Shown: positions 23,967 through 34,419 of the stretch, one piece after another
Layout: each line of letters begins with the position of its first letter
How positions within the stretch are numbered: the stretch's first letter is position 1
Origin: Myxococcota bacterium
GTDB lineage: Bacteria > Myxococcota_A > UBA796 > GCA-2862545
Assembly (NCBI GenBank): GCA_045106515.1
Contig: JBGCER010000082.1
Location: 1-48,534 of the forward strand
DNA: 48,534 nucleotides
Direction of reading: 5' to 3'
The notes under the pieces: model-generated
What the model was told of the DNA's origin: nothing
The model's input: only the letters and a program-made list of their open reading frames with translations
Databases searched by the model: none
Made by a program: the position numbers and the translations under genes

Positions 23967-24073
23967 TGGGCCTCCGTCGGCGCGACTGTAGCCCGATCGG
24001 GCAGATCGGGGCGGGCGTGGGCGGTCCGTGCTACGCTTAATATGGCTATCGCTCTGTTTTTTTGGAGGCCCCT

Positions 24074-24367
24074 ATGGGTATGCCGGCTGCGCGAATCACA
24101 GACATGCACGTGTGCCCCATGGTCACCGGCGTTGTTCCCCATGTGGGCGGACCTATCCTGCCTCCGGGCGGAGTGACCGTGCTCATCGCGGGGCTACCGG
24201 CCGCGCGCATTGGCGACATGTGCACCTGCGTGGGTCCGCCCGATACCATCATCAAGGGCTCCGCCACCGTCATGTCAGGCGGCATGCCCCAGGCCCGAAT
24301 GCTGGACAGCACGGCCCATGGCGGCATGATTGTCTTGGGTGCGCCCACGGTCTTGGTCGGCGGCTAG
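24074..24367 (+). CDS. PAAR-domain protein (T6SS spike-tip type), stand-alone ~97 aa
   Basis: PAARITD, LPAARIGD and MPQARMLD are three PAAR-like repeats, with HVCP and CTCVGPPD present. GGAGG lies 5 nt before the ATG at 24074. Confidence 0.8.
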   Translation: MGMPAARITDMHVCPMVTGVVPHVGGPILPPGGVTVLIAGLPAARIGDMCTCVGPPDTIIKGSATVMSGGMPQARMLDSTAHGGMIVLGAPTVLVGG

Positions 24368-24672: not shown

Positions 24673-24739
24673 CGAGTCCTCCATTCGGGACGGGTGCGTA
24701 GCGTTGGGGTAGCATGTTGCCACGCCCAAGCTGGAGTGC

Positions 24740-25228
24740 GTGATCACCGTGGTCAGTCGGGTCCTCTTTGTCTGTTCGGGCAACATCTGCCGAAGTCCCA
24801 TTGCTGAGGGCGTCTTTCGCAAGAAGATGGACGAGCAGGGGCTCCGCGATCAATTTGAGGTCGATAGCGCCGCGACGGGGCGCTGGCACATTGGTGAGGC
24901 GCCGGACACGCGCGCTCGCATCGTTCTGGAGCAACACGGGGCGCCGGTGCCCAAAGCGGCCCGACAGGTGACCAAGCGGGACTTCGAATACTTCGACTAC
25001 ATCCTGGCCATGGATCAGGGCGTCGCCAATACGCTTCGCCGGCGGGCCCCTTCCGAAGCGGGTGCTGCGAAAGTGGCGTTGATCCTGGATGCTACGGCGG
25101 GTGGCGACGTTCCCGATCCGTACTTCGGCAAGCAGGTGGACTTTGAGATCGCCTACGACCTGCTCGACGCTGCGGTGGATCGGTGGATTGTCTTGCTTGG
25201 AGCAAAGCTACCGGGCCGTGCCGGCTAG
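24740..25228 (+). CDS. Low-molecular-weight protein tyrosine phosphatase
   Basis: The P-loop is VLFVCSGNICRSPIAEG (CX5R-S). The DPYFG Asp loop is present. Confidence 0.85.
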   Translation: MITVVSRVLFVCSGNICRSPIAEGVFRKKMDEQGLRDQFEVDSAATGRWHIGEAPDTRARIVLEQHGAPVPKAARQVTKRDFEYFDYILAMDQGVANTLRRRAPSEAGAAKVALILDATAGGDVPDPYFGKQVDFEIAYDLLDAAVDRWIVLLGAKLPGRAG

Positions 25229-25234
25229 GTGGCG

Positions 25235-27802
25235 CTAGCGCCAGTCTCCGGCCACCACGAAGGCCGCCCACACCCATGGGGTGTTGTGGGCTTCACTCTT
25301 GAGCAAGCTGCGCTGCGCCATGGCCATCGACGTCGCCGCGTCGGTGCCCTTTGCGAGCTCGGCATAGAAGGCTTGCATGAGGGCTTTTGTGCCCTCGTCG
25401 TCGACCTTCCACAGGCTCGCCACCAGGGTCTCGACGCCAGCCCGACGGAATTGGGCTGCGAGGCCTTGGATGCTCACCACCCCGTCGCCCCCGCGGGCTT
25501 GCACGGGGCGTCCTGACTCACACGCGGACAGCACGACGATCCGAGCATGGGAGAGATAGGGTGCCAAGCCCGGAATCTCGCGGTAGCTCAGGCGGCCGGC
25601 CGCGTCGTCTCCGGCGAGGACCAGGTAGCTGCGGTTGGGTTCCACCGCGTCGATGCGACCATGGGTGGCCAAGTGCAGGGTCGTGCGGCCTTTGAGCTGT
25701 TCGAGCACGGCCTCGCGCGTGGCGCGCTCTCCCACCAGGACCGTGGACCCTCGGAACGCACCTGAGATGGCGCGGACCTCCGCTTCTGCGCCGGGAAGGG
25801 TGCCGTCTGGGTTGCCCACGAGCAACAGCGTTGGGCCCTCGACCCGCAAGGCCTGTGGCGCCCCTCGCAGGCTGCCCACGTGGCTGATGGACGCGACAGC
25901 GGCGTCTTGCATCAGGTAGCGGTCGTTGTGGCGCAGCAGGCCGAATGGCAGCTGTTTGAGGGAGCCGGCGGCGGACACCACAACCGTGGATGCGCCCTCG
26001 AGATCGCCAGCGATGGGCGTCCATAGCCATCCGCCGAGCGTCTGGGCGAGGGGGTCGAGGGCGGCGCGGTCCCGGAGGCCGGCTCGCAGGGCGCGGGTGA
26101 GCTTGGACACGGTCTTGTCGAGGGTCGCGGCGTCGACAGGTACATCGACGGTGCGCAGGCTGTTGCGGGTGAAGACCAGCAAGACCAGGCGATCTTGCAG
26201 GATGATGGGCTGCACCACCGCCACGCCTTCTGGTAGCTCCGACTGCAGCGCCTCTAGGTCTTCAGGGGCGACTCGGATCCGGGCGTCGAGGTCGCCGACG
26301 TCGGTGCGCAGGCGGTCCACGGTGTCGGCGAACTCGACACGGAGACGGGCCAGGTTGTCGCGGAGCACCATGGCGCGGATGGTCTCGCCCTTGGCCACGA
26401 CTTCGTCGCCGATCGCCTGCTGGATCGCGGCCTCTTGTTGGGCCATAGACGTCAGCTTCGGCGCGTTGGCCGGCTGCGTGCTCAGGGCGAGACGCTCCGC
26501 GGTCGCCAGGGCCTTGAGCGGCTCGCCCGCCCGGAGGTGCAGGTCAGCGAGGGCCTGGTAGACGCCGTCGTGGTCGGCGATGAACGAGGTGGACGCATCA
26601 GCGGGCAATAGTCGTCGGCGAAGCTCCAACACGTCTACGGCGGCCGTCAGGAGTTCTATGGCGCGCGCGTCGTTGTTTTGGTCTCGGGCGACGTAGCCGC
26701 GCACGACCAGGGCCTGCCATTGCACCTCTGGAAGCTCCAGCTTGATGGCCGATTTGTAGGCTTGTTTTGCCCGGTCATCTGCGGTGCTCGGGTCGGCCCT
26801 TAGCCCTTGCTGGGCCAGGCGCAGAACCACCTGCGCTTCGAGTCTTGGGTCGCGGTTTGCCTTGGCCTCGGCCAGCAGTGCGTTGAGCTGGTCGGTCGAC
26901 AGGGGCTGCACGGCGTCGAGGTCCAGCCGGACGCGCCTGGCTTGGGCCCCGCGGCCGGTCTGGGTGAAGGCCGCGACGGCGGACTCCAGGTGAGCGGCCG
27001 CGCGTTTTGCGTTGCCCGCCTGCCAAGCGAGGGCGCCTAGCAGTTGATGAATCGATCCTTGCTGGGCCAAGTCCTTGCGGTCTTGGGCCGCGGCGAGCGC
27101 CTGCTCCAGGTGCGTCTGTGCGGCCGCTGGGCGAGCGAGATCGGCCTCGACGGCTGCGAGGTTAATCAAGGTGTCGACCTGGCCGGCTTCGTCACCGATG
27201 CTCTTGTACAGGGCCAAGACCCCGTCGAGTTGCTCACGGGCGAGGCGCAGCTCTCCCCGGCGTCGGTGGCTCAGGGCGAGGTTTGCCGTCGCGTCCGCCT
27301 CGCCGGCCGGGTCCTTGAGGGCGATAAAGATCGTCCTCGCGGCGTCGAGGGCGTGGCTCGCATCCTCTACATTCCCCACCTGCAGGGAGAAGGCGCCCAG
27401 GTTGAGCGCGGCGTTCGCCGCCCCCTGAGGGTCTTTGGCTTCTTTGTAGAACGCCAGGGACTTCCGGAACGCCTCCAAGGTCGCCCTCGTGTCACCGGTG
27501 TGCATAGAAATCCGGCCATACGATAGGTATATCGCCGCATCTTTGGCTGGGCCCTTGCCGAGCCGACTGGCCTCGTTGATCACGTTCAGCGCCAGGCCGA
27601 CCCGTCCGAGTTCCCGATAGGCGGCGCTCATCTTGAGCAAGATCTCGCGTTCAGCGTCGGGGTCGTTTTGCGCCCGCGTTTGCTTGAGCGCGTCGCCCCA
27701 CGCGATGAGGGCTGCGGGGTAGTCCCCGTCGGCAAAGGCGTCGTCGCCCGTGTCGACCGGGCCCGCGACGGCCCAGCAGCACCAGAGCAAGAACCACATC
27801 AC
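25235..27802 (-). CDS. Exported TPR-repeat / CHAT-domain (caspase-like) protease
   Basis: The N-terminus MMWFLLWCCWAVAG is hydrophobic. Multiple TPR-like repeats follow. The C-terminal CHAT blocks are TLHLATHG, IVVLSACESG and LVASLWKVDD, with the His/Cys dyad intact. The start overlaps the upstream stop. Confidence 0.85.
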   Translation of the reverse strand: MMWFLLWCCWAVAGPVDTGDDAFADGDYPAALIAWGDALKQTRAQNDPDAEREILLKMSAAYRELGRVGLALNVINEASRLGKGPAKDAAIYLSYGRISMHTGDTRATLEAFRKSLAFYKEAKDPQGAANAALNLGAFSLQVGNVEDASHALDAARTIFIALKDPAGEADATANLALSHRRRGELRLAREQLDGVLALYKSIGDEAGQVDTLINLAAVEADLARPAAAQTHLEQALAAAQDRKDLAQQGSIHQLLGALAWQAGNAKRAAAHLESAVAAFTQTGRGAQARRVRLDLDAVQPLSTDQLNALLAEAKANRDPRLEAQVVLRLAQQGLRADPSTADDRAKQAYKSAIKLELPEVQWQALVVRGYVARDQNNDARAIELLTAAVDVLELRRRLLPADASTSFIADHDGVYQALADLHLRAGEPLKALATAERLALSTQPANAPKLTSMAQQEAAIQQAIGDEVVAKGETIRAMVLRDNLARLRVEFADTVDRLRTDVGDLDARIRVAPEDLEALQSELPEGVAVVQPIILQDRLVLLVFTRNSLRTVDVPVDAATLDKTVSKLTRALRAGLRDRAALDPLAQTLGGWLWTPIAGDLEGASTVVVSAAGSLKQLPFGLLRHNDRYLMQDAAVASISHVGSLRGAPQALRVEGPTLLLVGNPDGTLPGAEAEVRAISGAFRGSTVLVGERATREAVLEQLKGRTTLHLATHGRIDAVEPNRSYLVLAGDDAAGRLSYREIPGLAPYLSHARIVVLSACESGRPVQARGGDGVVSIQGLAAQFRRAGVETLVASLWKVDDEGTKALMQAFYAELAKGTDAATSMAMAQRSLLKSEAHNTPWVWAAFVVAGDWR

Positions 27803-28497
27803 AGGTCGAGCGCCGCCAGCTCAGCCTTCGCAGCAGCCAGGTTATCGTCGCTCGCTACGGCCTTCTCGAAGGATTCCCGCGCGCGAACTTTGTCTTTGCC
27901 GTCCAGGAAGATCAGGCCTTCGGAGTAGGCGACTGCCGCTTCTACGGCTTCGGGATCGTGCTGCACCAAGGCGGTGTTTGCGTCGCCGCCTCGGGTGGCG
28001 GAGGCCCCGCCCTCTTTCGCCTCTGGGGATGGGTTGCCCGCGAGGTGAGCCTTGAGCTCGTTGGCGAGTCTCTTCTCGAGGGAGAGGAACTCGGGGGCCG
28101 TACCGTTGACGCCGTGTGCGTGCACGATCTCGCCGGTCTCGACCTTGACCAGGCGGGCGTCGATTCGCAGGGTGCCAGCGAGCTCGAAGTACCCACCCAT
28201 GACGATCCACTCGGCGCCTAGCAACTTACCGACTTTGGCCGCGGTCTTCTTGTCCACCATGCCGCTGTGTCCGAGCTCGAGCTCGTCCAAGATCTGCTGC
28301 ACGCGCTGCCGCTCGACCACGGTCACGTCGGGCGTGCCTTGCAGGTCGGTGATCAGCATCTGTGCCAGCCCGACCTTGAGCGGTTCGAGCTGCTCATTGC
28401 CCTGATTGTCGAAGTAGAGGACCGCCACCCGGTCGTCGGCCGCCGAGGCGGCAATGGGCAGGAGCAGCGAAAACATCAGGAAGAAGGAGCGAAACAT
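27799..28497 (-). CDS. Periplasmic CsgG/FlgO/LpoB-like scaffold protein with C-terminal TPR-like tail
   Basis: The signal is MFRSFFLMFSLLLPIAASA. VAVLYFDNQG...VVERQRVQQILDELEL...LGAEWIVMGGY...IDARLVKVETGEI matches the CsgG-like fold pattern. The start lies 8 nt after the CHASE2 stop. Confidence 0.5.
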   Translation of the reverse strand: MFRSFFLMFSLLLPIAASAADDRVAVLYFDNQGNEQLEPLKVGLAQMLITDLQGTPDVTVVERQRVQQILDELELGHSGMVDKKTAAKVGKLLGAEWIVMGGYFELAGTLRIDARLVKVETGEIVHAHGVNGTAPEFLSLEKRLANELKAHLAGNPSPEAKEGGASATRGGDANTALVQHDPEAVEAAVAYSEGLIFLDGKDKVRARESFEKAVASDDNLAAAKAELAALDL

Positions 28498-28505
28498 AGA
28501 CACCT

Positions 28506-30230
28506 CTAGTCGATGGCCCAGCCGCGAAGTCGAATCGCGACGATGCCCAAAATCAAGGAGGTAAGGGGAACAGAGAGGTCTAGCACCAGGCCGTCGGTCA
28601 GAGTAAAAATGATGGCGCCGATCAAGACCAGCACAAGGCCGCTGGCCAAAGCCAGGGCGGTGTGCAGGTCCTCCCGAAGTCGGGTGGAGGTCAGTACGAG
28701 GCCCAGCAGTACGACCCCTGCGAGGGTCCACATGGTCCATCGGGGCGCGGATTGTACGTGTCGACCCGACAGCAGGGTGTCGATGGCGTGGGCTTGAATG
28801 CGCGCCCCATCCATGTCGGTCCGCGTGGGCAGGGGGAAGCCGTATGGGGTGGCGAAGCGGTCATCGGCTTGGCCATCGACCCGCCCCACGACCACGATCT
28901 TGCCCTTGACCTCGTTGGAGAGCCAGGTGGGGATCTTCGCGGGCGTTTCCACTCCGGCCATCCGGTACAGGGCGGGCTCTGCGGCGAGTCTCAGGAGCTG
29001 TGCCGCCTGTACGGTGGCCAGCCCATCGGCGGACTCTGGGCCTCGAAAGTTGATGGGAAACGCCCCTTCCAATGCGGGGCCCCCCGGAAGGCCGAGGTCG
29101 GCCAGTGAGGTCTTGCACGACAGCGGCCGGGGGGTGCACCCGTCGGCGAGTCGGGCCAGCAGCGTATCGGTCGATGCCCGGCCAGGGTGCGTGTGCATCC
29201 ATGCGGCGAGAAGGGCCATATGTGGCGTGATCTGCGAGGCCCCCTGCGCCTGTCCGACGCTGGCGGGCCACGGCGCGCTCAGGCGGGCTCGGTCGACGCT
29301 CTGCACCAGCTGTGTGCCGCGCACGAGGCGCTCATCGGACGAGGTCCACAGGGCTTCTTCGCCGAGGTTGGCGAAGCCAGAGGCCATGGCTTCGCCCAGG
29401 GATGCCGCCGGTCCGGGCGCGAAGTGGGCGCCGACGGCCGCCTCGGTCACGACGAAGCGGTCCGCGGCGATGACCGCCCCGTGGGCGGTGCTCGCTTGGG
29501 CCAGCCGCTCGTCTCCAGGCGCGGGAGCATGGAGCAGGAAGTCAAGAACAATGACGTTCGCACCGGCACTATCAAGTATGCTTACCACCTCTCCGAGCAG
29601 GGCTCGTGGGGTCACCTCGGGCGCCGGGTCTTCGGGGTTCCAGAGGTACAACGCCTCGGTGCCGACCGTCACCAAGACCACCTCATCCGAGGTGACGGCG
29701 GGATAGGCACCGATCAGCTCACGAGCCTTGATGTAGAGGTCGCGCATTTCCCCATTGAAGCTGGTGAATAATAGGATCGATGCCATGAGGAACGTGACGG
29801 TCGTGACCACAACTTCGTAGGAGAGATGGCGAGAGAGTCGGGTGAACGTCTGTCCGGCTTTGGGTTGATCGGGCCCAATAAGCCACCGCTCAAACCACCG
29901 TTTCGGCTTTGCCGTGTCCTGCACCTCCGGGGGAGGTGGGGGTGCGGGGGGAGGCGTCGCGTTGAATTGGGCCTCTAGGTCGTCGACCACCTGGTCGTCC
30001 GAGTCCATCGAGGCCCGGGGTGCCGGAGATGGCGTCGGCGTGAGGCGCGCGCTGGTCGGACGGGCCGGGGGCGGGGTGCCGCGGAGGACGGCCGGCGCCG
30101 GATTGGGCGTCGGGTCCCGCTGTGCGAGGGGGATGCTCGCGTCCATGGAGCGCGGCCGGAGGGGCGGCGGGGTGCCGACGGGGGCGCTCGGACGCACCGG
30201 CGGCGCGCTGTCATCGGACTCGCTGCTCAC
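28506..30230 (-). CDS. Stand-alone CHASE2 sensor-domain membrane protein with Pro-rich cytoplasmic N-terminus and no recognisable output domain
   Basis: It has an N-terminal TM helix and a CHASE2-like periplasmic region (VVLVTVGTE..., NVIVLDFLL, KIVVVGRVDGQADDRFATPYG). Three C-terminal TM helices follow, and the protein then ends. The GTG start overlaps the FecR-like stop (GTGA at 30227-30230). Confidence 0.65.
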   Translation of the reverse strand: MSSESDDSAPPVRPSAPVGTPPPLRPRSMDASIPLAQRDPTPNPAPAVLRGTPPPARPTSARLTPTPSPAPRASMDSDDQVVDDLEAQFNATPPPAPPPPPEVQDTAKPKRWFERWLIGPDQPKAGQTFTRLSRHLSYEVVVTTVTFLMASILLFTSFNGEMRDLYIKARELIGAYPAVTSDEVVLVTVGTEALYLWNPEDPAPEVTPRALLGEVVSILDSAGANVIVLDFLLHAPAPGDERLAQASTAHGAVIAADRFVVTEAAVGAHFAPGPAASLGEAMASGFANLGEEALWTSSDERLVRGTQLVQSVDRARLSAPWPASVGQAQGASQITPHMALLAAWMHTHPGRASTDTLLARLADGCTPRPLSCKTSLADLGLPGGPALEGAFPINFRGPESADGLATVQAAQLLRLAAEPALYRMAGVETPAKIPTWLSNEVKGKIVVVGRVDGQADDRFATPYGFPLPTRTDMDGARIQAHAIDTLLSGRHVQSAPRWTMWTLAGVVLLGLVLTSTRLREDLHTALALASGLVLVLIGAIIFTLTDGLVLDLSVPLTSLILGIVAIRLRGWAID

Positions 30231-31054
30231 GGCTTGACGAGGCCTAGGCGCTGCTCGTAGGCGCGCCGCAACTCGACGATTTCCGTGCTCTCTGGGTGCG
30301 CTGCCGCCGCTGCATCTAGGGTCCAGAGCGCGTCGGCCGTTAGACCGGCGCTCCAGTAGATTCCCGCGACGACGCTGGGCTTCAGCGCGACGTCGTCTTC
30401 GCTGTCGCCGAGCAGGGACAGGCCGTGCTGCACGGCGGTCTTGACGCCTTTGCTCTGGCCTTGGGTGGCGATGGTCATGGCGAACTCCTCGTCGCCGACC
30501 CGCACCAAGTAGGGACCCGGCGCGAGGCTTGCGCCGTCATAGGCCGCGGTGTCCGTCGCTTGGGTGGTCCAGATGGGATCGTCGGCCATGAGCGGGGTGA
30601 GGCTCACGGTCTGGGGTCCGCAGTCTTCGCACCGCCAGGACACGCCGGCGAAGTGTTGGACTTGGCCTCCGGCGATGGGCCGGGTCAGGGTCAGGGCGCC
30701 GCCTCGGCTGGCCCCGGCTTTGGCGAACGAGACGTCGCGGGACAGGACCTGGGTGAGCGCCGCGCCGGACGTCTGGCCCTGCGTGCCCACCGACGGGGCA
30801 TGAAGGTCCGTCATGGACACGGTGCGGGGGCCTCGAAGGCGCGTCGCCGTGCCTTCCGCCAGCACGACCACGCTGCCGCCCTCACCTAAAGTGATGGTTT
30901 GTCCTGATTTAAGGACGAATGGGGCGCTTGGGGTTGTCCCATCGGCCTGGGTCACGGATCCGGTGGCCAGGGTGACCAGCGCGGTCTCTGCGGCCAAGGC
31001 CGGAGAGGCCATTGCGGCACATACGAGCACGATGGGCATGAAGTGGCGAGTCAT
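30227..31054 (-). CDS. Secreted FecR-domain protein
   Basis: The signal is MTRHFMPIVLVCAAMASPALA. LATGSVTQADG...LKSGQTITLGEGGSVVVLAEGTATRLRG has the FecR (PF04773) pattern. AGAGG lies 6 nt before the ATG at 31054. Confidence 0.6.
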   Translation of the reverse strand: MTRHFMPIVLVCAAMASPALAAETALVTLATGSVTQADGTTPSAPFVLKSGQTITLGEGGSVVVLAEGTATRLRGPRTVSMTDLHAPSVGTQGQTSGAALTQVLSRDVSFAKAGASRGGALTLTRPIAGGQVQHFAGVSWRCEDCGPQTVSLTPLMADDPIWTTQATDTAAYDGASLAPGPYLVRVGDEEFAMTIATQGQSKGVKTAVQHGLSLLGDSEDDVALKPSVVAGIYWSAGLTADALWTLDAAAAAHPESTEIVELRRAYEQRLGLVKP

Positions 31055-31151
31055 GGGCAACCTCTGTGGGAGCCATAGACGCTCCCCGCACCTGTCTTCT
31101 TCCCCGTTTGGGGTCAAGGCGCTCGGAAGGGGATGTAACGGCTTGGGCCGG

Positions 31152-31640
31152 CTACTCCTCGCACTCGTTGTGGCGTGGGTCATCGATCCGGGCAGTGACC
31201 GTCTCAGTGAGCGGATCGCCCTTGCTGTCCGGCACCGTCACCGTGACCTCAACTTCTTTGTCGTGCAAGGAGCACGGGCTGTCGAACCGATCGGGGTCGA
31301 AGATCAGGAAGCTGTTCCAGGCCTGGAGCGTCTGAGTGTCTTCGCTGCATCGGAAGGTGAGCCAAGCGCCTTCGTTGCGCGCCACAACCTCGCCATCGAT
31401 CGTGGCTTGCATCTCTGCGACCACCACACCGCGAGCGTCCAGGCCCGCCGCATCGAGGCCGATGAGCAGGTGCCATCCGCCCTGCGGTCCGTGAATCAGC
31501 TCATAACTGGGGTCTGTCTCGGACAAGGGTTCGAACGCGATCTCGCCGGCACCCACGGTAAGCCGCGGTTGAGCGGACCGAGCGCAGTCGCCACCACAGC
31601 CATGCATCATCGCGATCAGGAGCACTAGAGCTGACTTCAT
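31152..31640 (-). CDS. Lipoprotein, hypothetical
   Basis: The lipobox signal is MKSALVLLIAMMHGCGG. Confidence 0.5.
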   Translation of the reverse strand: MKSALVLLIAMMHGCGGDCARSAQPRLTVGAGEIAFEPLSETDPSYELIHGPQGGWHLLIGLDAAGLDARGVVVAEMQATIDGEVVARNEGAWLTFRCSEDTQTLQAWNSFLIFDPDRFDSPCSLHDKEVEVTVTVPDSKGDPLTETVTARIDDPRHNECEE

Positions 31641-31761
31641 GATGGAAGGGTAGCCTGAGCGGCTTCGACTGGCGTGGGCACGTGCTTGTCTTGTGTGGGT
31701 GGGGTCACTCAAGTTGCCTCCGCTTGGGCCGATGGGCCGGGCATGTGTGAACGGAGGCTTC

Positions 31762-32109
31762 ATGTCTGCTCCCAATCTATTGGACCTGTCTCGTCTGGAC
31801 GCCGCTCTCGGTGGAGATCGTGGCCTGATGACCGAGATCCTTCAGATGTATGAATCGACGGCCGCCATGGATGTGGAGGAGCTGTCGCAAGCCGTAGAGG
31901 ACGGAAATGTCGACACGGTCGTGCGTCGGGCCCACGCCATCAAAGGCGCCAGCGGCAACGTCGGCGCTGATGCGGTGATGGACGTGGCCGGTCGCATCGA
32001 GCGTGCGGGTCGCGATGGCGAGCTGGAACAGGCCCTGGCCTTGGTGCCCGACCTGCGCGCCGCGTTCGCCGAGACCCTGGCAGCGAGTCAGGCCTATCGG
32101 GCGGCTTAG
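31762..32109 (+). CDS. Stand-alone HPt (histidine phosphotransfer) protein
   Basis: RRAHAIKGASGNVGA is the HxxKG phospho-His motif. GGAGG lies 4 nt before the ATG at 31762. Confidence 0.8.
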   Translation: MSAPNLLDLSRLDAALGGDRGLMTEILQMYESTAAMDVEELSQAVEDGNVDTVVRRAHAIKGASGNVGADAVMDVAGRIERAGRDGELEQALALVPDLRAAFAETLAASQAYRAA

Positions 32110-32579
32110 TCGTCTGTGGGGGTCGGCCATTGAGGCCAGGGGCCTCCACCCATGAACCGTGCGGTCTGGCTGAGCAAGGACTCGGTGGGAATTGCGGGCT
32201 CACCTGCGGAGTCCAGCAGGTGCGTTGACGCCTCAAAGAGAAGCGCTGCCGCTGCCTTGTGGCCGGTATGCACGCGGATCCAGCACGCGGCGAGCTTAAT
32301 CAGGCCCATGGCCAAGGTGGCCCGCCTAGGATCGGTGGGTCGATAGCCCAGCCAGGCACGCTCCAACGTCTCATGAGCCTCCCATGGATAGCGATGGGCG
32401 AGGAGGTCGATGCCACGCCACAACAGGGTGTGGAGATCTGCGGTTTCGGGAAGTTCCCACTGGGGATCGGGGTCGTGCTTGGGGTGGGGTCCCACACCCG
32501 GTACGTAGCGGCGGCTGGGTAGCGGATGCGCGACCCGCAGCGGCGGAGGATCGACGGGAGCGGGGATGGGGCCAGGCAT
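32106..32579 (-). CDS. DUF309-domain protein
   Basis: YPWEAHETLERAW matches the DUF309 signature (xxEAHExLEExW). Confidence 0.6.
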   Translation of the reverse strand: MPGPIPAPVDPPPLRVAHPLPSRRYVPGVGPHPKHDPDPQWELPETADLHTLLWRGIDLLAHRYPWEAHETLERAWLGYRPTDPRRATLAMGLIKLAACWIRVHTGHKAAAALLFEASTHLLDSAGEPAIPTESLLSQTARFMGGGPWPQWPTPTDD

Positions 32580-32619: not shown

Positions 32620-34419
32620 CTACCCCGCCTGCAGCCACTCTCTCACCACGGTCGTGGGCGCACTCAGGTATTCCAAAGCGGCTTCTTCGGATAGGGGTCG
32701 GGCGAAGAGGTAGCCCTGGCCACGACAGGGACCCAGGGCGCTCAGCAGCTGCACTTGACCCTCAGTCTCGATGCCCTCGGCGGTCAGAGACAGGCCCATC
32801 TCTTGCGCCATGCGAGCCACCATTCGGACGATGGCGAGGCTTCTGGGGTCTTCCTCCGCCCTCATCACGAACTCCCGGTCGACCTTCAGCGCATCTACAG
32901 GGAGGTGGGCCAGGTTTGATAGTGAAGAGTATCCAGTTCCAAAGTCATCAATGTGTATTTGGCATCCGAGCGCGCGCAGGCGCTCCAGCATCAGCGCCTG
33001 TCGCTCTGGGTGGGCGAGCAAGGCGGTCTCGGTGATCTCGATGTTCACGAACCCACGGGCACGGGGGAATCGATTGAGGATCTCATCGATGCGGTCGACC
33101 AAGCCAAGTTCGCCGAACTGGAGGGGCGAGAGGTTGATGTTCATCCGAAGGTGGGCGCCTTCGGGTTGGCCACGCCACTGGTGCAGCGTGGCGCAGGCCT
33201 GCTCCAGAACCCAAGCGCCCACGGGAATGATCAGCCCCGTCTCTTCGGCCAGAGGGATGAACTCGGCGGGGGAGATGAAGCCTAAAACCGGGTCGGTCCA
33301 CCGAATAAGGGCTTCAAAACTGACGATACTCCGGTCTGGCAACTGCACGATCGGTTGGTAGACGAGGCTCAGGCGATCGTGGCGCAGGGCGTCACGAAGC
33401 CGCGCTTCCATGGTCAGTCGCTCAGCGTGGCCGGTGTCGGAGTCGGTGAAGGCGGCCCACCCCGAGGTACCGGTGGCTTTGGCCCTGGCCAGCGCCCGTT
33501 CGGCATCTCGCATGGCGGCGGAGGCGTCGGTCCAGCGGCCATCCATCCACAGCGTCCCGACGCACGCGCCCAGGACGATATTGTGCCCTTCCGCGGTCAG
33601 CGGCACCTTCAGCACGTCGATGAGCTGCTGGGAGAGCTCGGCGAGCGGTGGGGTCGTGTCGCCCTCGGCCGGCACGACGAGGGCGAAGAGGTCTCCGTTC
33701 ACTCGGGCGGCGAACGCGCTCTCTCCGCCGGCGCTTCGAATGCGCTCCGCCGCCTGGCAGAGCAGTCCGTCGCCGACCTTCGGCCCAAGTGCACGGTTAA
33801 CCGTCCTGAATCGGGCGATATCGATCAGGACGAGTCCGGCGTTTGCCGTGGTCGACTGAAGCACAGTCGTCAGATGCTCCACCAGCGCGAGGCGATTGGG
33901 CAGGCCAGTGAGGCCATCGTGCGTGGCGCTCCACATGGCTTGGTCTTCGGCGCTGCGCCGGGCGTGATCGTCGAAGAGAGCGCCGAGCAGGTGGGTGGGT
34001 CGGCCTTGTTCATCTCGGTGAACCGAGCCCCGCACGTCCACCCAGCGCCAGCTGCCATCGGCCTGGCACAAGCGATGACTGGCCTCAAACCGTTCGGATC
34101 GGCCGCGTAGGTGACGGCTCAGTGCCTTTCGGACTCCGCCTTCGTCGTCGGGGTGCACGCGGTCGAGCCAGTCTTGGCCGTTGTGGATGCGCCCGATCCC
34201 AGCGCTCTCCACGGTCTCTTCATCTCCGGACCAGTTCATGGCATTGGTTTGCAGATCCCATCTGAACAGGACAATCGGCGCGGACTCGACCAGCAGAGAG
34301 ACCAGCTCCTTGGCCTCATCGAGGCGGGCGATAAGCGTGGAGCGGTGATTCCAAGGCAGGTGGTCGGGCATGGGTCTCGCGGTGCTGACCCAGAAATCGG
34401 TGCCGCGGCACCAAGGCAT
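32620..34419 (-). CDS. PAS / degenerate-GGDEF / EAL protein, a probable c-di-GMP phosphodiesterase
   Basis: The PAS region is followed by GLTGLPNR. The GGDEF site reads NGDLF, which is degenerate. The EAL motifs FEALIRW, NINLSP, EITET, DDFGTGYSS and GQGYLFARP are intact. The start may be 34419 or an internal ATG at 34371. Confidence 0.85.
   Translation of the reverse strand: MPWCRGTDFWVSTARPMPDHLPWNHRSTLIARLDEAKELVSLLVESAPIVLFRWDLQTNAMNWSGDEETVESAGIGRIHNGQDWLDRVHPDDEGGVRKALSRHLRGRSERFEASHRLCQADGSWRWVDVRGSVHRDEQGRPTHLLGALFDDHARRSAEDQAMWSATHDGLTGLPNRLALVEHLTTVLQSTTANAGLVLIDIARFRTVNRALGPKVGDGLLCQAAERIRSAGGESAFAARVNGDLFALVVPAEGDTTPPLAELSQQLIDVLKVPLTAEGHNIVLGACVGTLWMDGRWTDASAAMRDAERALARAKATGTSGWAAFTDSDTGHAERLTMEARLRDALRHDRLSLVYQPIVQLPDRSIVSFEALIRWTDPVLGFISPAEFIPLAEETGLIIPVGAWVLEQACATLHQWRGQPEGAHLRMNINLSPLQFGELGLVDRIDEILNRFPRARGFVNIEITETALLAHPERQALMLERLRALGCQIHIDDFGTGYSSLSNLAHLPVDALKVDREFVMRAEEDPRSLAIVRMVARMAQEMGLSLTAEGIETEGQVQLLSALGPCRGQGYLFARPLSEEAALEYLSAPTTVVREWLQAG

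Follow-up and report, generated by a model that had tools for sequence, protein, structure and literature searches.

A conserved four-gene module of uncultured Myxococcota that sets a predicted exported TPR-CHAT protease beside a CHASE2 protein without an output domain

Introduction

CHASE2 is a widespread sensor domain of bacteria, and the signal that it recognises has not been identified (PMC5192318). Here we analyse a cluster of four genes in which a CHASE2 membrane protein without an output domain is encoded together with two predicted secreted proteins and a predicted exported, caspase-like protease that joins tetratricopeptide repeats (TPR) to a CHAT domain. The cluster lies at positions 25235-31054, on the minus strand, of a 48,534-nucleotide stretch of DNA from an uncultured Myxococcota bacterium (contig JBGCER010000082.1 of assembly GCA_045106515.1). 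We refer to this whole stretch as the window, and to the four genes as the module.

A precedent for the protease is DdvA of Myxococcus xanthus, a zinc anti-sigma factor that spans the membrane and has a TPR-CHAT region in the periplasm (PMC11506125; PDB 8rw5, 8rot). This region is proposed to trigger regulated proteolysis: DdvA would cut itself in a flexible linker of the periplasm ahead of RseP, and transmembrane signalling would begin with this caspase-like cleavage. According to the authors of that study, no other anti-sigma factor with a TPR-CHAT region has been characterised (PMC11506125). The module resembles the DdvA/DdvS system in having a periplasmic TPR-CHAT of separase/craspase architecture and in occurring in Myxococcota, and DdvA is the second-best Foldseek match of our model of the protease (E = 1.7e-14; 17% identity in the structural alignment). 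The two systems differ in that the TPR-CHAT of the window is a secreted protein in its own right, without fusion to a transmembrane anti-sigma factor, and in that its partners are the CHASE2 protein, a secreted protein that we call P4, and a CsgG-like protein.

Precedents also exist for the CHASE2 protein. The Burkholderia operon of the BiofilmReg type encodes a response regulator, a secreted LysM/FecR protein and a CHASE2 histidine kinase (PMC5192318). There, as in the window, a secreted accessory gene stands immediately upstream of the gene for the CHASE2 membrane protein, a likeness which suggests that CHASE2 may take its input through a periplasmic protein partner. In contrast to the module, however, the Burkholderia accessory is a true LysM/FecR protein, its CHASE2 has a PAS-HisKA-HATPase output and a response regulator, and the operon contains no protease. 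Direct fusions of a caspase (Peptidase_C14) to CHASE2 are found in cyanobacteria and in EACC2 conflict systems (PMC2853523, PMC3501461, PMC8195603). In these fusions, too, a caspase-fold protease is functionally linked to CHASE2, but the protease is N-terminal to the first transmembrane helix and is predicted to be cytoplasmic, whereas that of the window is a separate, exported protein of the CHAT clade.

Finally, the TPR-CHAT fold is shared with craspase (Cas7-11 together with the TPR-CHAT protein Csx29) and with separase, both of which are among the top Foldseek matches of the window protein. Craspase and separase are regulated by the binding of a partner, and each cleaves one specific partner (Csx30 and cohesin, respectively); separase cleaves after an arginine within an unstructured motif. 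They differ from the protease of the window in being cytoplasmic or nuclear, in being activated by RNA or by the cell cycle, and in having unrelated partners.

In the searchable literature we found no case of CHASE2 together with a CHAT domain, and no characterised periplasmic TPR-CHAT besides DdvA. A first-pass annotation of the window, made from the sequence before the present analysis, had stated that no characterised system was known with the architecture of this cluster. Within the searchable literature this holds, though each pairing has a precedent: DdvA for the periplasmic protease, the LysM/FecR-CHASE2 operon for the accessory protein, and the caspase-CHASE2 fusions for the link between protease and sensor. 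The module is a new combination of known kinds of parts, no member of which has been characterised in that literature.

Results

Four genes inherited as one unit

The module consists of four open reading frames (ORFs) on the minus strand: 30227-31054 for P4 (our name for the product that had been labelled FecR), 28506-30230 for the CHASE2 protein, 27799-28497 for the CsgG-like protein, and 25235-27802 for the TPR-CHAT protein. The P4 gene ends in AAG CCG TGA, and the GTG start of the CHASE2 gene overlaps that stop codon in the tetranucleotide GTGA (30227-30230, minus strand). Between the TAG of the CHASE2 gene and the next ATG lies a gap of 8 nt (28498-28505, minus strand), which a Shine-Dalgarno-like GAGGTG precedes. 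In the sequence GTGATG (27797-27802, minus strand), the CsgG-like gene ends within the GTG/ATG start of the CHAT gene. These co-directional genes and their tight junctions lie exactly where the first-pass annotation had placed them. The 4-nt overlap between the P4 and CHASE2 genes recurs in 22 of 29 related loci, and at the junction between the CsgG-like and CHAT genes most related loci have either an overlap or a gap of at most 8 nt. The four genes are inherited as one unit with translational coupling.

The fraction of codons ending in G or C (GC3) is 0.79-0.82 in the P4, CHASE2 and CHAT ORFs, the three that pass our coding filter; the CsgG-like ORF, which was scored from its longest possible start at 28740, falls below the filter. 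Promoter and terminator scans of 24700-32200 returned counts no higher than expected by chance, and a scan of the window found no paralogues of the four genes.

We scanned one genome per GTDB species with an alignment of the CsgG-like protein as the query, which gave 34 loci, and we mapped 37 non-redundant loci using custom hidden Markov models (HMMs) of the four families. The carriers found by the scan are all metagenome-assembled genomes (MAGs). The majority go under the name of Myxococcota, Deltaproteobacteria or Proteobacteria, and some bear automatic labels that look wrong. The gene order P4-CHASE2-CsgG-like-CHAT is complete in 25 of the 37 loci, cut by a contig end and otherwise consistent in nine, and deviating in three. 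Among the deviating loci, which like all others we designate by an L number, L031 and L039 are without P4 and CHASE2, and L042 is without a separate CsgG-like gene. In L012 (7087-10997) and L013 (10717-13515), some 2.8-3.9 kb are inserted between the CsgG-like and CHAT genes.

Three close relatives share with the window not only the module and its order but the wider neighbourhood as well. Two Myxococcota MAGs carry the same four genes between wholly different flanks; their CHASE2 is only 42% identical to that of the window, and their P4 shows 34-36% identity along its whole length. When the flanking ORFs of the 37 loci were clustered all against all, setting aside those that overlap matches of our custom HMMs (the four core genes and a large CsgG-like paralogue described below), no family occurred in more than five loci. 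Thus, we conclude that the unit consists of the four genes, with no cytoplasmic partner conserved beside it. The synteny that had been singled out for checking is kept in relatives amid varying flanks.

The TPR-CHAT protease

The gene at 25235-27802 (minus strand) encodes a caspase-like cysteine protease of 855 aa. Its CHAT domain (PF12770) matches at 2.5e-56 and 191.7 bits (cutoff 24) over residues 584-853, and a TPR_12 match of 62 bits lies upstream. An AlphaFold2 (AF2) model, with a mean predicted local distance difference test (pLDDT) score of 83, places a TPR superhelix at residues ~14-520 and the CHAT domain at ~526-851, and the top Foldseek matches of this model are Csx29 of craspase, DdvA of M. 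xanthus and separase. The His/Cys pair had been described as intact. It is more than that: the motif HLATHG with His710 (25658-25675, minus strand) and the motif LSACESG with the catalytic Cys761 (25511-25531, minus strand) are each invariant in 30 orthologues. The histidine is invariant across diverse TPR-CHAT proteins too, and in two alignments of such diverse proteins His and Cys are both invariant or nearly so.

The likeness to DdvA and Csx29 is one of fold. At the sequence level a phmmer search of the protein against the PDB returned TPR matches only, with neither DdvA nor Csx29 among them, and the NCBIfam model of Csx29 scores 1e-5, below its own cutoff. A close sequence kinship of the window protein to either was not found by these searches.

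The N-terminus of the window protein, MMWFLLWCCWAVAGPVD, is hydrophobic. Recognisable signal peptides, such as MKSIRRALNALWLTLLLTVTPAVA followed by AD, are present in nearly all of 31 orthologues. Because signal peptides are conserved across the orthologues in this way, the predicted export of the protein, which the first-pass annotation had read from the hydrophobic N-terminus, is well supported. Four orthologues carry the twin-arginine motifs RRRDFL or RRRSFL, and the remainder are mostly of Sec type, so the family may use two export routes. The four genes in question start at L027:10658, L032:10661, L033:680 and L037:10604, with MRRRDFL or MRRRSFL.

The CHASE2 membrane protein

The 574-aa product of 28506-30230 (minus strand) matches PF05226 at 3.3e-25 and 89.6 bits (cutoff 26.3) over residues 147-510, and no second domain is found in it. 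For this and the other three products, topology is assigned from hydropathy and from homologues. Hydropathy places one transmembrane helix at residues 140-158 and three more at 497-514, 526-544 and 548-566 (encoded at 28533-28742), which agrees with the arrangement first proposed, namely one helix, a periplasmic domain and three further helices. The last helix is followed by only about 8 residues. Since the chain ends so soon after it, we describe the protein as a CHASE2 without an output domain, as had been claimed at the outset; all 38 of 38 homologues likewise match PF05226 and nothing else.

The gene call of the sequence collection puts the start of this gene 74 codons later than we do. 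We favour the GTG at 30230, since the 4-nt overlap that it creates is kept in 22 of 29 loci and since homologues cover 97-99% of the long form. The proline-rich N-terminal tail (encoded at 29814-30230, minus strand) contains a short motif, PPPLRPxxxDAxIPLA, that the window shares with L001 and L002 only. Judged by comparison of the orthologues, this tail is not a conserved output.

P4, a secreted protein with a conserved linker

P4 is a protein of 275 aa, predicted to be secreted, that is encoded at 30227-31054 (minus strand). Its AF2 model shows, after a signal peptide at residues 1-22, a small beta domain at residues 25-80. A linker connects this domain to a beta-sandwich at 137-195, in which W140, C142 and C145 are conserved, and the chain closes with a helical, TPR-like tail at 198-270. 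The mean pLDDT is 67; it is about 80 in the domains and below 50 over residues 86-132, the linker. Within this low-confidence linker lies a conserved motif, VLSRDVSFAKAGASRGGALTLTRP (30677-30748, minus strand). Its R117 does not vary in a set of 22 sequences and reaches at least 90% conservation in a set of 53. G114, A115, R125 and P126 are conserved as well, and these linker positions are among the most conserved of the family. Since such strongly conserved positions sit in a region predicted to be disordered, the motif, to which we refer as the GAxR linker, is a candidate docking, recognition or cleavage site for the protease.

The first-pass annotation had called this protein a secreted FecR-domain protein, and that label must be withdrawn. 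Of the Pfam models by which the annotation proposed to check its assignments, those for CHASE2, CHAT and CsgG were confirmed and that for FecR was not: PF04773 is absent from P4 (E ≤ 0.1), from P4 with six close homologues (E ≤ 10) and from 67 family members (E ≤ 1). A profile of the family compared with PDB sequences returned TPR proteins only, without FecR or PupR; the AF2 model compared with the PDB by Foldseek gave a best match of E = 0.017, again without FecR or PupR; and hhalign of P4 against E. coli FecR gave a probability of 0.25%. The likeness of the small N-terminal beta domain to the FecR pattern is one seen by eye alone.

Among 1.84 billion representative proteins, a profile search found only about 104 relatives of P4, nearly all of them 250-320 aa long. 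P4 itself has no match to DUF928 (PF06051), and three of the 67 family members do. One of these three, P0133, reaches 28.6 bits against DUF928 (gathering cutoff 26) over profile positions 29-175 of 184, in the region of the sandwich and tail, and matches the P4 profile with E = 1.1e-5. Because it is drawn through P0133, the link between P4 and DUF928 is remote and transitive. Going by these profile comparisons, P4 is best described as belonging to an unannotated, remotely DUF928-like family of secreted proteins. In the searchable literature DUF928 turns up only in a survey of prokaryotic WD40 proteins.

The CsgG-like protein

The remaining product, of 232 aa (27799-28497, minus strand), matches Pfam CsgG (PF03783) at 5.5e-16 and 59 bits (cutoff 20.8), but only over positions 11-97 of the 210 in the profile. 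The same stretch gives weaker matches to LpoB (2.3e-5), FlgO (0.03) and TolB_N. An alpha/beta domain is followed by a variable proline-rich linker and by a conserved TPR-like C-terminal tail, in keeping with the signal-peptide protein of CsgG/FlgO/LpoB type with a TPR tail that had been recognised before. The N-terminus, MFRSFFLMFSLLLPIAASA followed by ADD, is a Sec signal peptide without a cysteine, and the same is true of five orthologues. Since the match is confined to profile positions 11-97, we take the protein to have the small alpha/beta periplasmic domain common to these families and not the CsgG barrel. A channel of the CsgG type is rejected: only the N-terminal half of the profile is matched, the barrel-forming half is missing, and there is no lipobox.

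A larger paralogue, to which we refer as bigCsgG, has a length of 570-810 aa and consists of a CsgG-N-like domain, TPR and a long C-terminal part. It is not found in the window. It lies directly upstream of P4 in nine loci (L002, L003, L022, L023, L024, L030, L036, L037 and L039); in two of them, at L002:8124-10004 and L003:8028-10004, the called genes overlap P4 by 4 nt.

Related arrangements outside the clade

The nearest non-orthologous TPR-CHAT protein, P0156 of locus L043 (27% identity), has a signal peptide. Its operon encodes the TPR-CHAT protein, a 319-aa protein of the P4 family (74 bits, end to end) and a CHASE2-guanylate cyclase. Like the window, then, this locus encodes in one direction a TPR-CHAT with an export signal, a P4-family member of full length and a membrane protein with CHASE2; but here CHASE2 has a cyclase output, there is no CsgG-like gene, and the order is CHAT-P4-CHASE2. 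L043 is the one locus of this type that we examined. In L008 (2-7603), P0133, the DUF928-scoring protein introduced above, is encoded between a CHASE2-guanylate cyclase and a large TPS-domain, two-partner-secretion exoprotein, all co-directional. Three other remote P4 relatives, P0100, P0112 and P0134, lie on contigs too short to show a useful gene context.

We also considered a generic sample of TPR-CHAT genes, which comprises 80 metagenome loci, many of them on short contigs. A P4/DUF928-like gene adjoins the TPR-CHAT gene in about ten of them, a CHASE2 gene in none. Five of the roughly ten P4-like neighbours begin with a zf-HC2 zinc anti-sigma domain, with the P4-like module as the periplasmic part. 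These genes, which adjoin TPR-CHAT genes in soil and sediment metagenomes, are located on the minus strand at L054:11824-13062, L065:423-1520, L059:10597-11862, L125:9472-10734 and L119:10458-11798. The alignment of P4 to the fusions spans the beta-sandwich and the helical tail, and so extends beyond the TPR-like part. In two of the five loci the divergent gene upstream is weakly similar to sigma-70 regions 2/4. From their gene content, such loci appear to be a 'split' form of the M. xanthus DdvA/DdvS system, one that seems not to have been described.

A third arrangement occurs at L006:3593-9939 and in the same form in L007: an output-less CHASE2 protein of 373 aa, a convergent P4-like gene, a sigma factor of the extracytoplasmic function (ECF) type, a 235-aa protein and a Peptidase_C14 protein of 717 aa. 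Here CHASE2, P4 and a caspase fold are linked through a different protease family. On the strength of L043, the zf-HC2 fusions and L006, we conclude that the P4/DUF928-like module recurs in the periplasm as a companion of caspase-fold proteases, joined to or encoded next to transmembrane transducers that differ from case to case.

The module of the window is not itself a DdvA-type anti-sigma system. None of its four proteins has a Pfam match to zf-HC2 or to any other anti-sigma domain, and no ORF of the window matches the ECF sigma factor of L006.

Neighbouring genes

Upstream of P4, at a distance of 97 nt from its start, lies a lipoprotein-like gene on the same strand (31152-31640, minus) with a conserved motif, HGPQGGWH, and without a Pfam match. 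The first-pass annotation had mentioned this gene as a further lipoprotein upstream of the operon. The resemblance to a lipoprotein and the orientation stand; conservation is confined to the three closest relatives, L001-L003, where alone a counterpart was found. The gene lies outside the conserved core and is a neighbour specific to these relatives.

Beyond it, the window contains genes for an Hpt protein (31693-32109, plus strand), a DUF309 protein (32106-32579, minus strand) and a PAS-GGDEF-EAL protein (32620-34419, minus strand). The synteny of this flank extends to the close relatives, with a PilZ gene at the place in two of them, and not to the more distant carriers; the three genes are probably not part of the module. 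On the other side, about 900 bp downstream of the CHAT gene, a stand-alone gene with a PAAR motif (24062-24367, plus strand; Pfam 6.5e-22) is kept in L001. Among the scanned ORFs around it there are no type VI secretion genes.

Discussion

Proposed function of the module

By predicted topology, each of the four products either lies outside the cytoplasm or places its main domain in the periplasm. Tentatively, and with somewhat less than even confidence, we propose that they form a self-contained periplasmic proteolytic signalling module of uncultured Myxococcota, in which the protease and P4 act as the input of CHASE2. The exported TPR-CHAT protein would most likely bind P4 as its dedicated partner and would probably cut it in the disordered linker that contains the GAxR motif. 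The state of P4, intact or cleaved, would then be read by the periplasmic domain of CHASE2. The CsgG-N/LpoB-like TPR protein would serve as a periplasmic adaptor, which may hold the complex in place or bring in a cue from the envelope. Since CHASE2 has no conserved cytoplasmic domain, the effect may remain in the envelope, where CHASE2 would anchor the protease to the membrane or gate it; alternatively, the transmembrane bundle may hand the signal on to a partner encoded elsewhere. In a system of the L043 type the read-out would be a cyclic nucleotide, and in the anti-sigma fusions it would be the release of a sigma factor.

Several observations weigh against this proposal. All carriers of the module are uncultured MAGs. 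The cut in the P4 linker is something that we purely infer, and the GAxR motif lies outside the alignments of P4 to the anti-sigma fusions. The signal peptide of the CHAT protein in the window has no positively charged n-region. The proline-rich cytoplasmic tail of CHASE2 ranges from 29 to ~163 aa across the orthologues and is not conserved, and no sigma factor, kinase or cyclase is conserved near the module in the 37 loci, so that an output cannot be named. The connection of P4 to DUF928 is transitive, by way of P0133. Lastly, with about ten P4-like neighbours and no CHASE2 neighbour among the 80 generic loci, the wider association of TPR-CHAT with P4 and CHASE2 is only partial.

It is important to separate the membership of the module from the direction in which the signal would flow. 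The first-pass annotation had CHASE2 perceive a signal and proteolysis follow as the output; in this form, CHASE2 would sense an envelope or external signal and directly activate the periplasmic TPR-CHAT, which would act on envelope targets. The absence of an output domain from any of the 38 CHASE2 homologues, the variable cytoplasmic tail, the lack of a conserved cytoplasmic partner gene nearby and the fact that the protease is the sole enzyme of the module all fit such a scheme, and it may be right. The relatives, however, make it less likely. The trio of L043 ends in a CHASE2-cyclase, so that its output is cytoplasmic, and for this reason we consider the protease and P4 more likely to be inputs of CHASE2. 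The fusions of P4-like and anti-sigma domains put the protease upstream of a transmembrane transducer, and no envelope substrate candidate is conserved besides the proteins of the module themselves. The direction is thus probably the reverse of the one first proposed, and we regard the CHASE2-first order as rather unlikely.

Two further explanations leave signalling aside. The module might be an accessory of envelope assembly or secretion, in which the CsgG-like proteins, bigCsgG among them, and the TPR proteins make or mature a surface structure such as a fibre, an adhesin or a spore coat, with CHAT as a processing peptidase and CHASE2 as a membrane scaffold. That would account for the CsgG/LpoB/FlgO-like domain, for the 570-810-aa paralogue directly upstream in nine loci, and for the cluster of L008, where a DUF928-like relative has a CHASE2-cyclase on one side and a two-partner-secretion exoprotein on the other. 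But the CsgG match covers positions 11-97 of 210, without the barrel-forming part and without a lipobox, no gene for a cargo protein, an usher, a pilin or an exoprotein is conserved beside the module, and CHASE2 is otherwise a family of sensor domains; we hold this explanation to be improbable. It is more improbable still, to the point of being a minor consideration, that the module is a conflict or defence system whose CHAT effector is released or activated upon attack by a phage or competitor. CHAT proteases are frequent in defence and act in CRISPR type III-E, CBASS and gasdermin systems. DdvA controls a defence island (PMC11506125), caspase-CHASE2 fusions occur in predicted conflict systems (PMC8195603), and in the window the PAAR gene lies ~900 bp downstream of the CHAT gene. 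Yet only the closest relatives keep that gene beside the module, the surrounding genes serve housekeeping or signalling and do not form a defence island, and the module occurs once per genome across the whole clade rather than patchily. A search of the module proteins with PADLOC-DB v2 matched no defence protease or system, only a generic TPR model on the CHAT protein, and a known anti-phage system is accordingly not supported.

Implications

The proposal that the protease and P4 supply the input of CHASE2 invites a broader one, which we offer as doubtful: that an exported TPR-CHAT with a DUF928-like partner may be a general periplasmic input device, used alike by zinc anti-sigma factors, CHASE2-cyclases and output-less CHASE2 proteins. 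The loci described here point to 'split DdvA-like' systems of sigma factor, anti-sigma factor and CHAT protein in soil metagenomes. Together they extend periplasmic CHAT proteolysis beyond DdvA, to a predicted free-standing exported enzyme with dedicated partners, and they offer a likely role for the small, unannotated P4 family and for DUF928.

For CHASE2 itself, the module and its relatives repeatedly set a secreted partner, together with a caspase-like protease that is exported, beside a sensor domain whose input is at issue. This gives a testable idea, namely that the input of CHASE2 is a protein and that proteolysis sets the state of this protein. If it is true, then the ligand of at least this branch of CHASE2 would be a protein, or a fragment made by a protease, and not a small molecule. 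The module of the window does without an output domain in the cytoplasm, and in this it departs from the usual sensor operon; on the same condition, it would represent an extracytoplasmic caspase-like pathway that operates wholly within the envelope of these Myxococcota, with neither a second messenger nor a transcription factor.

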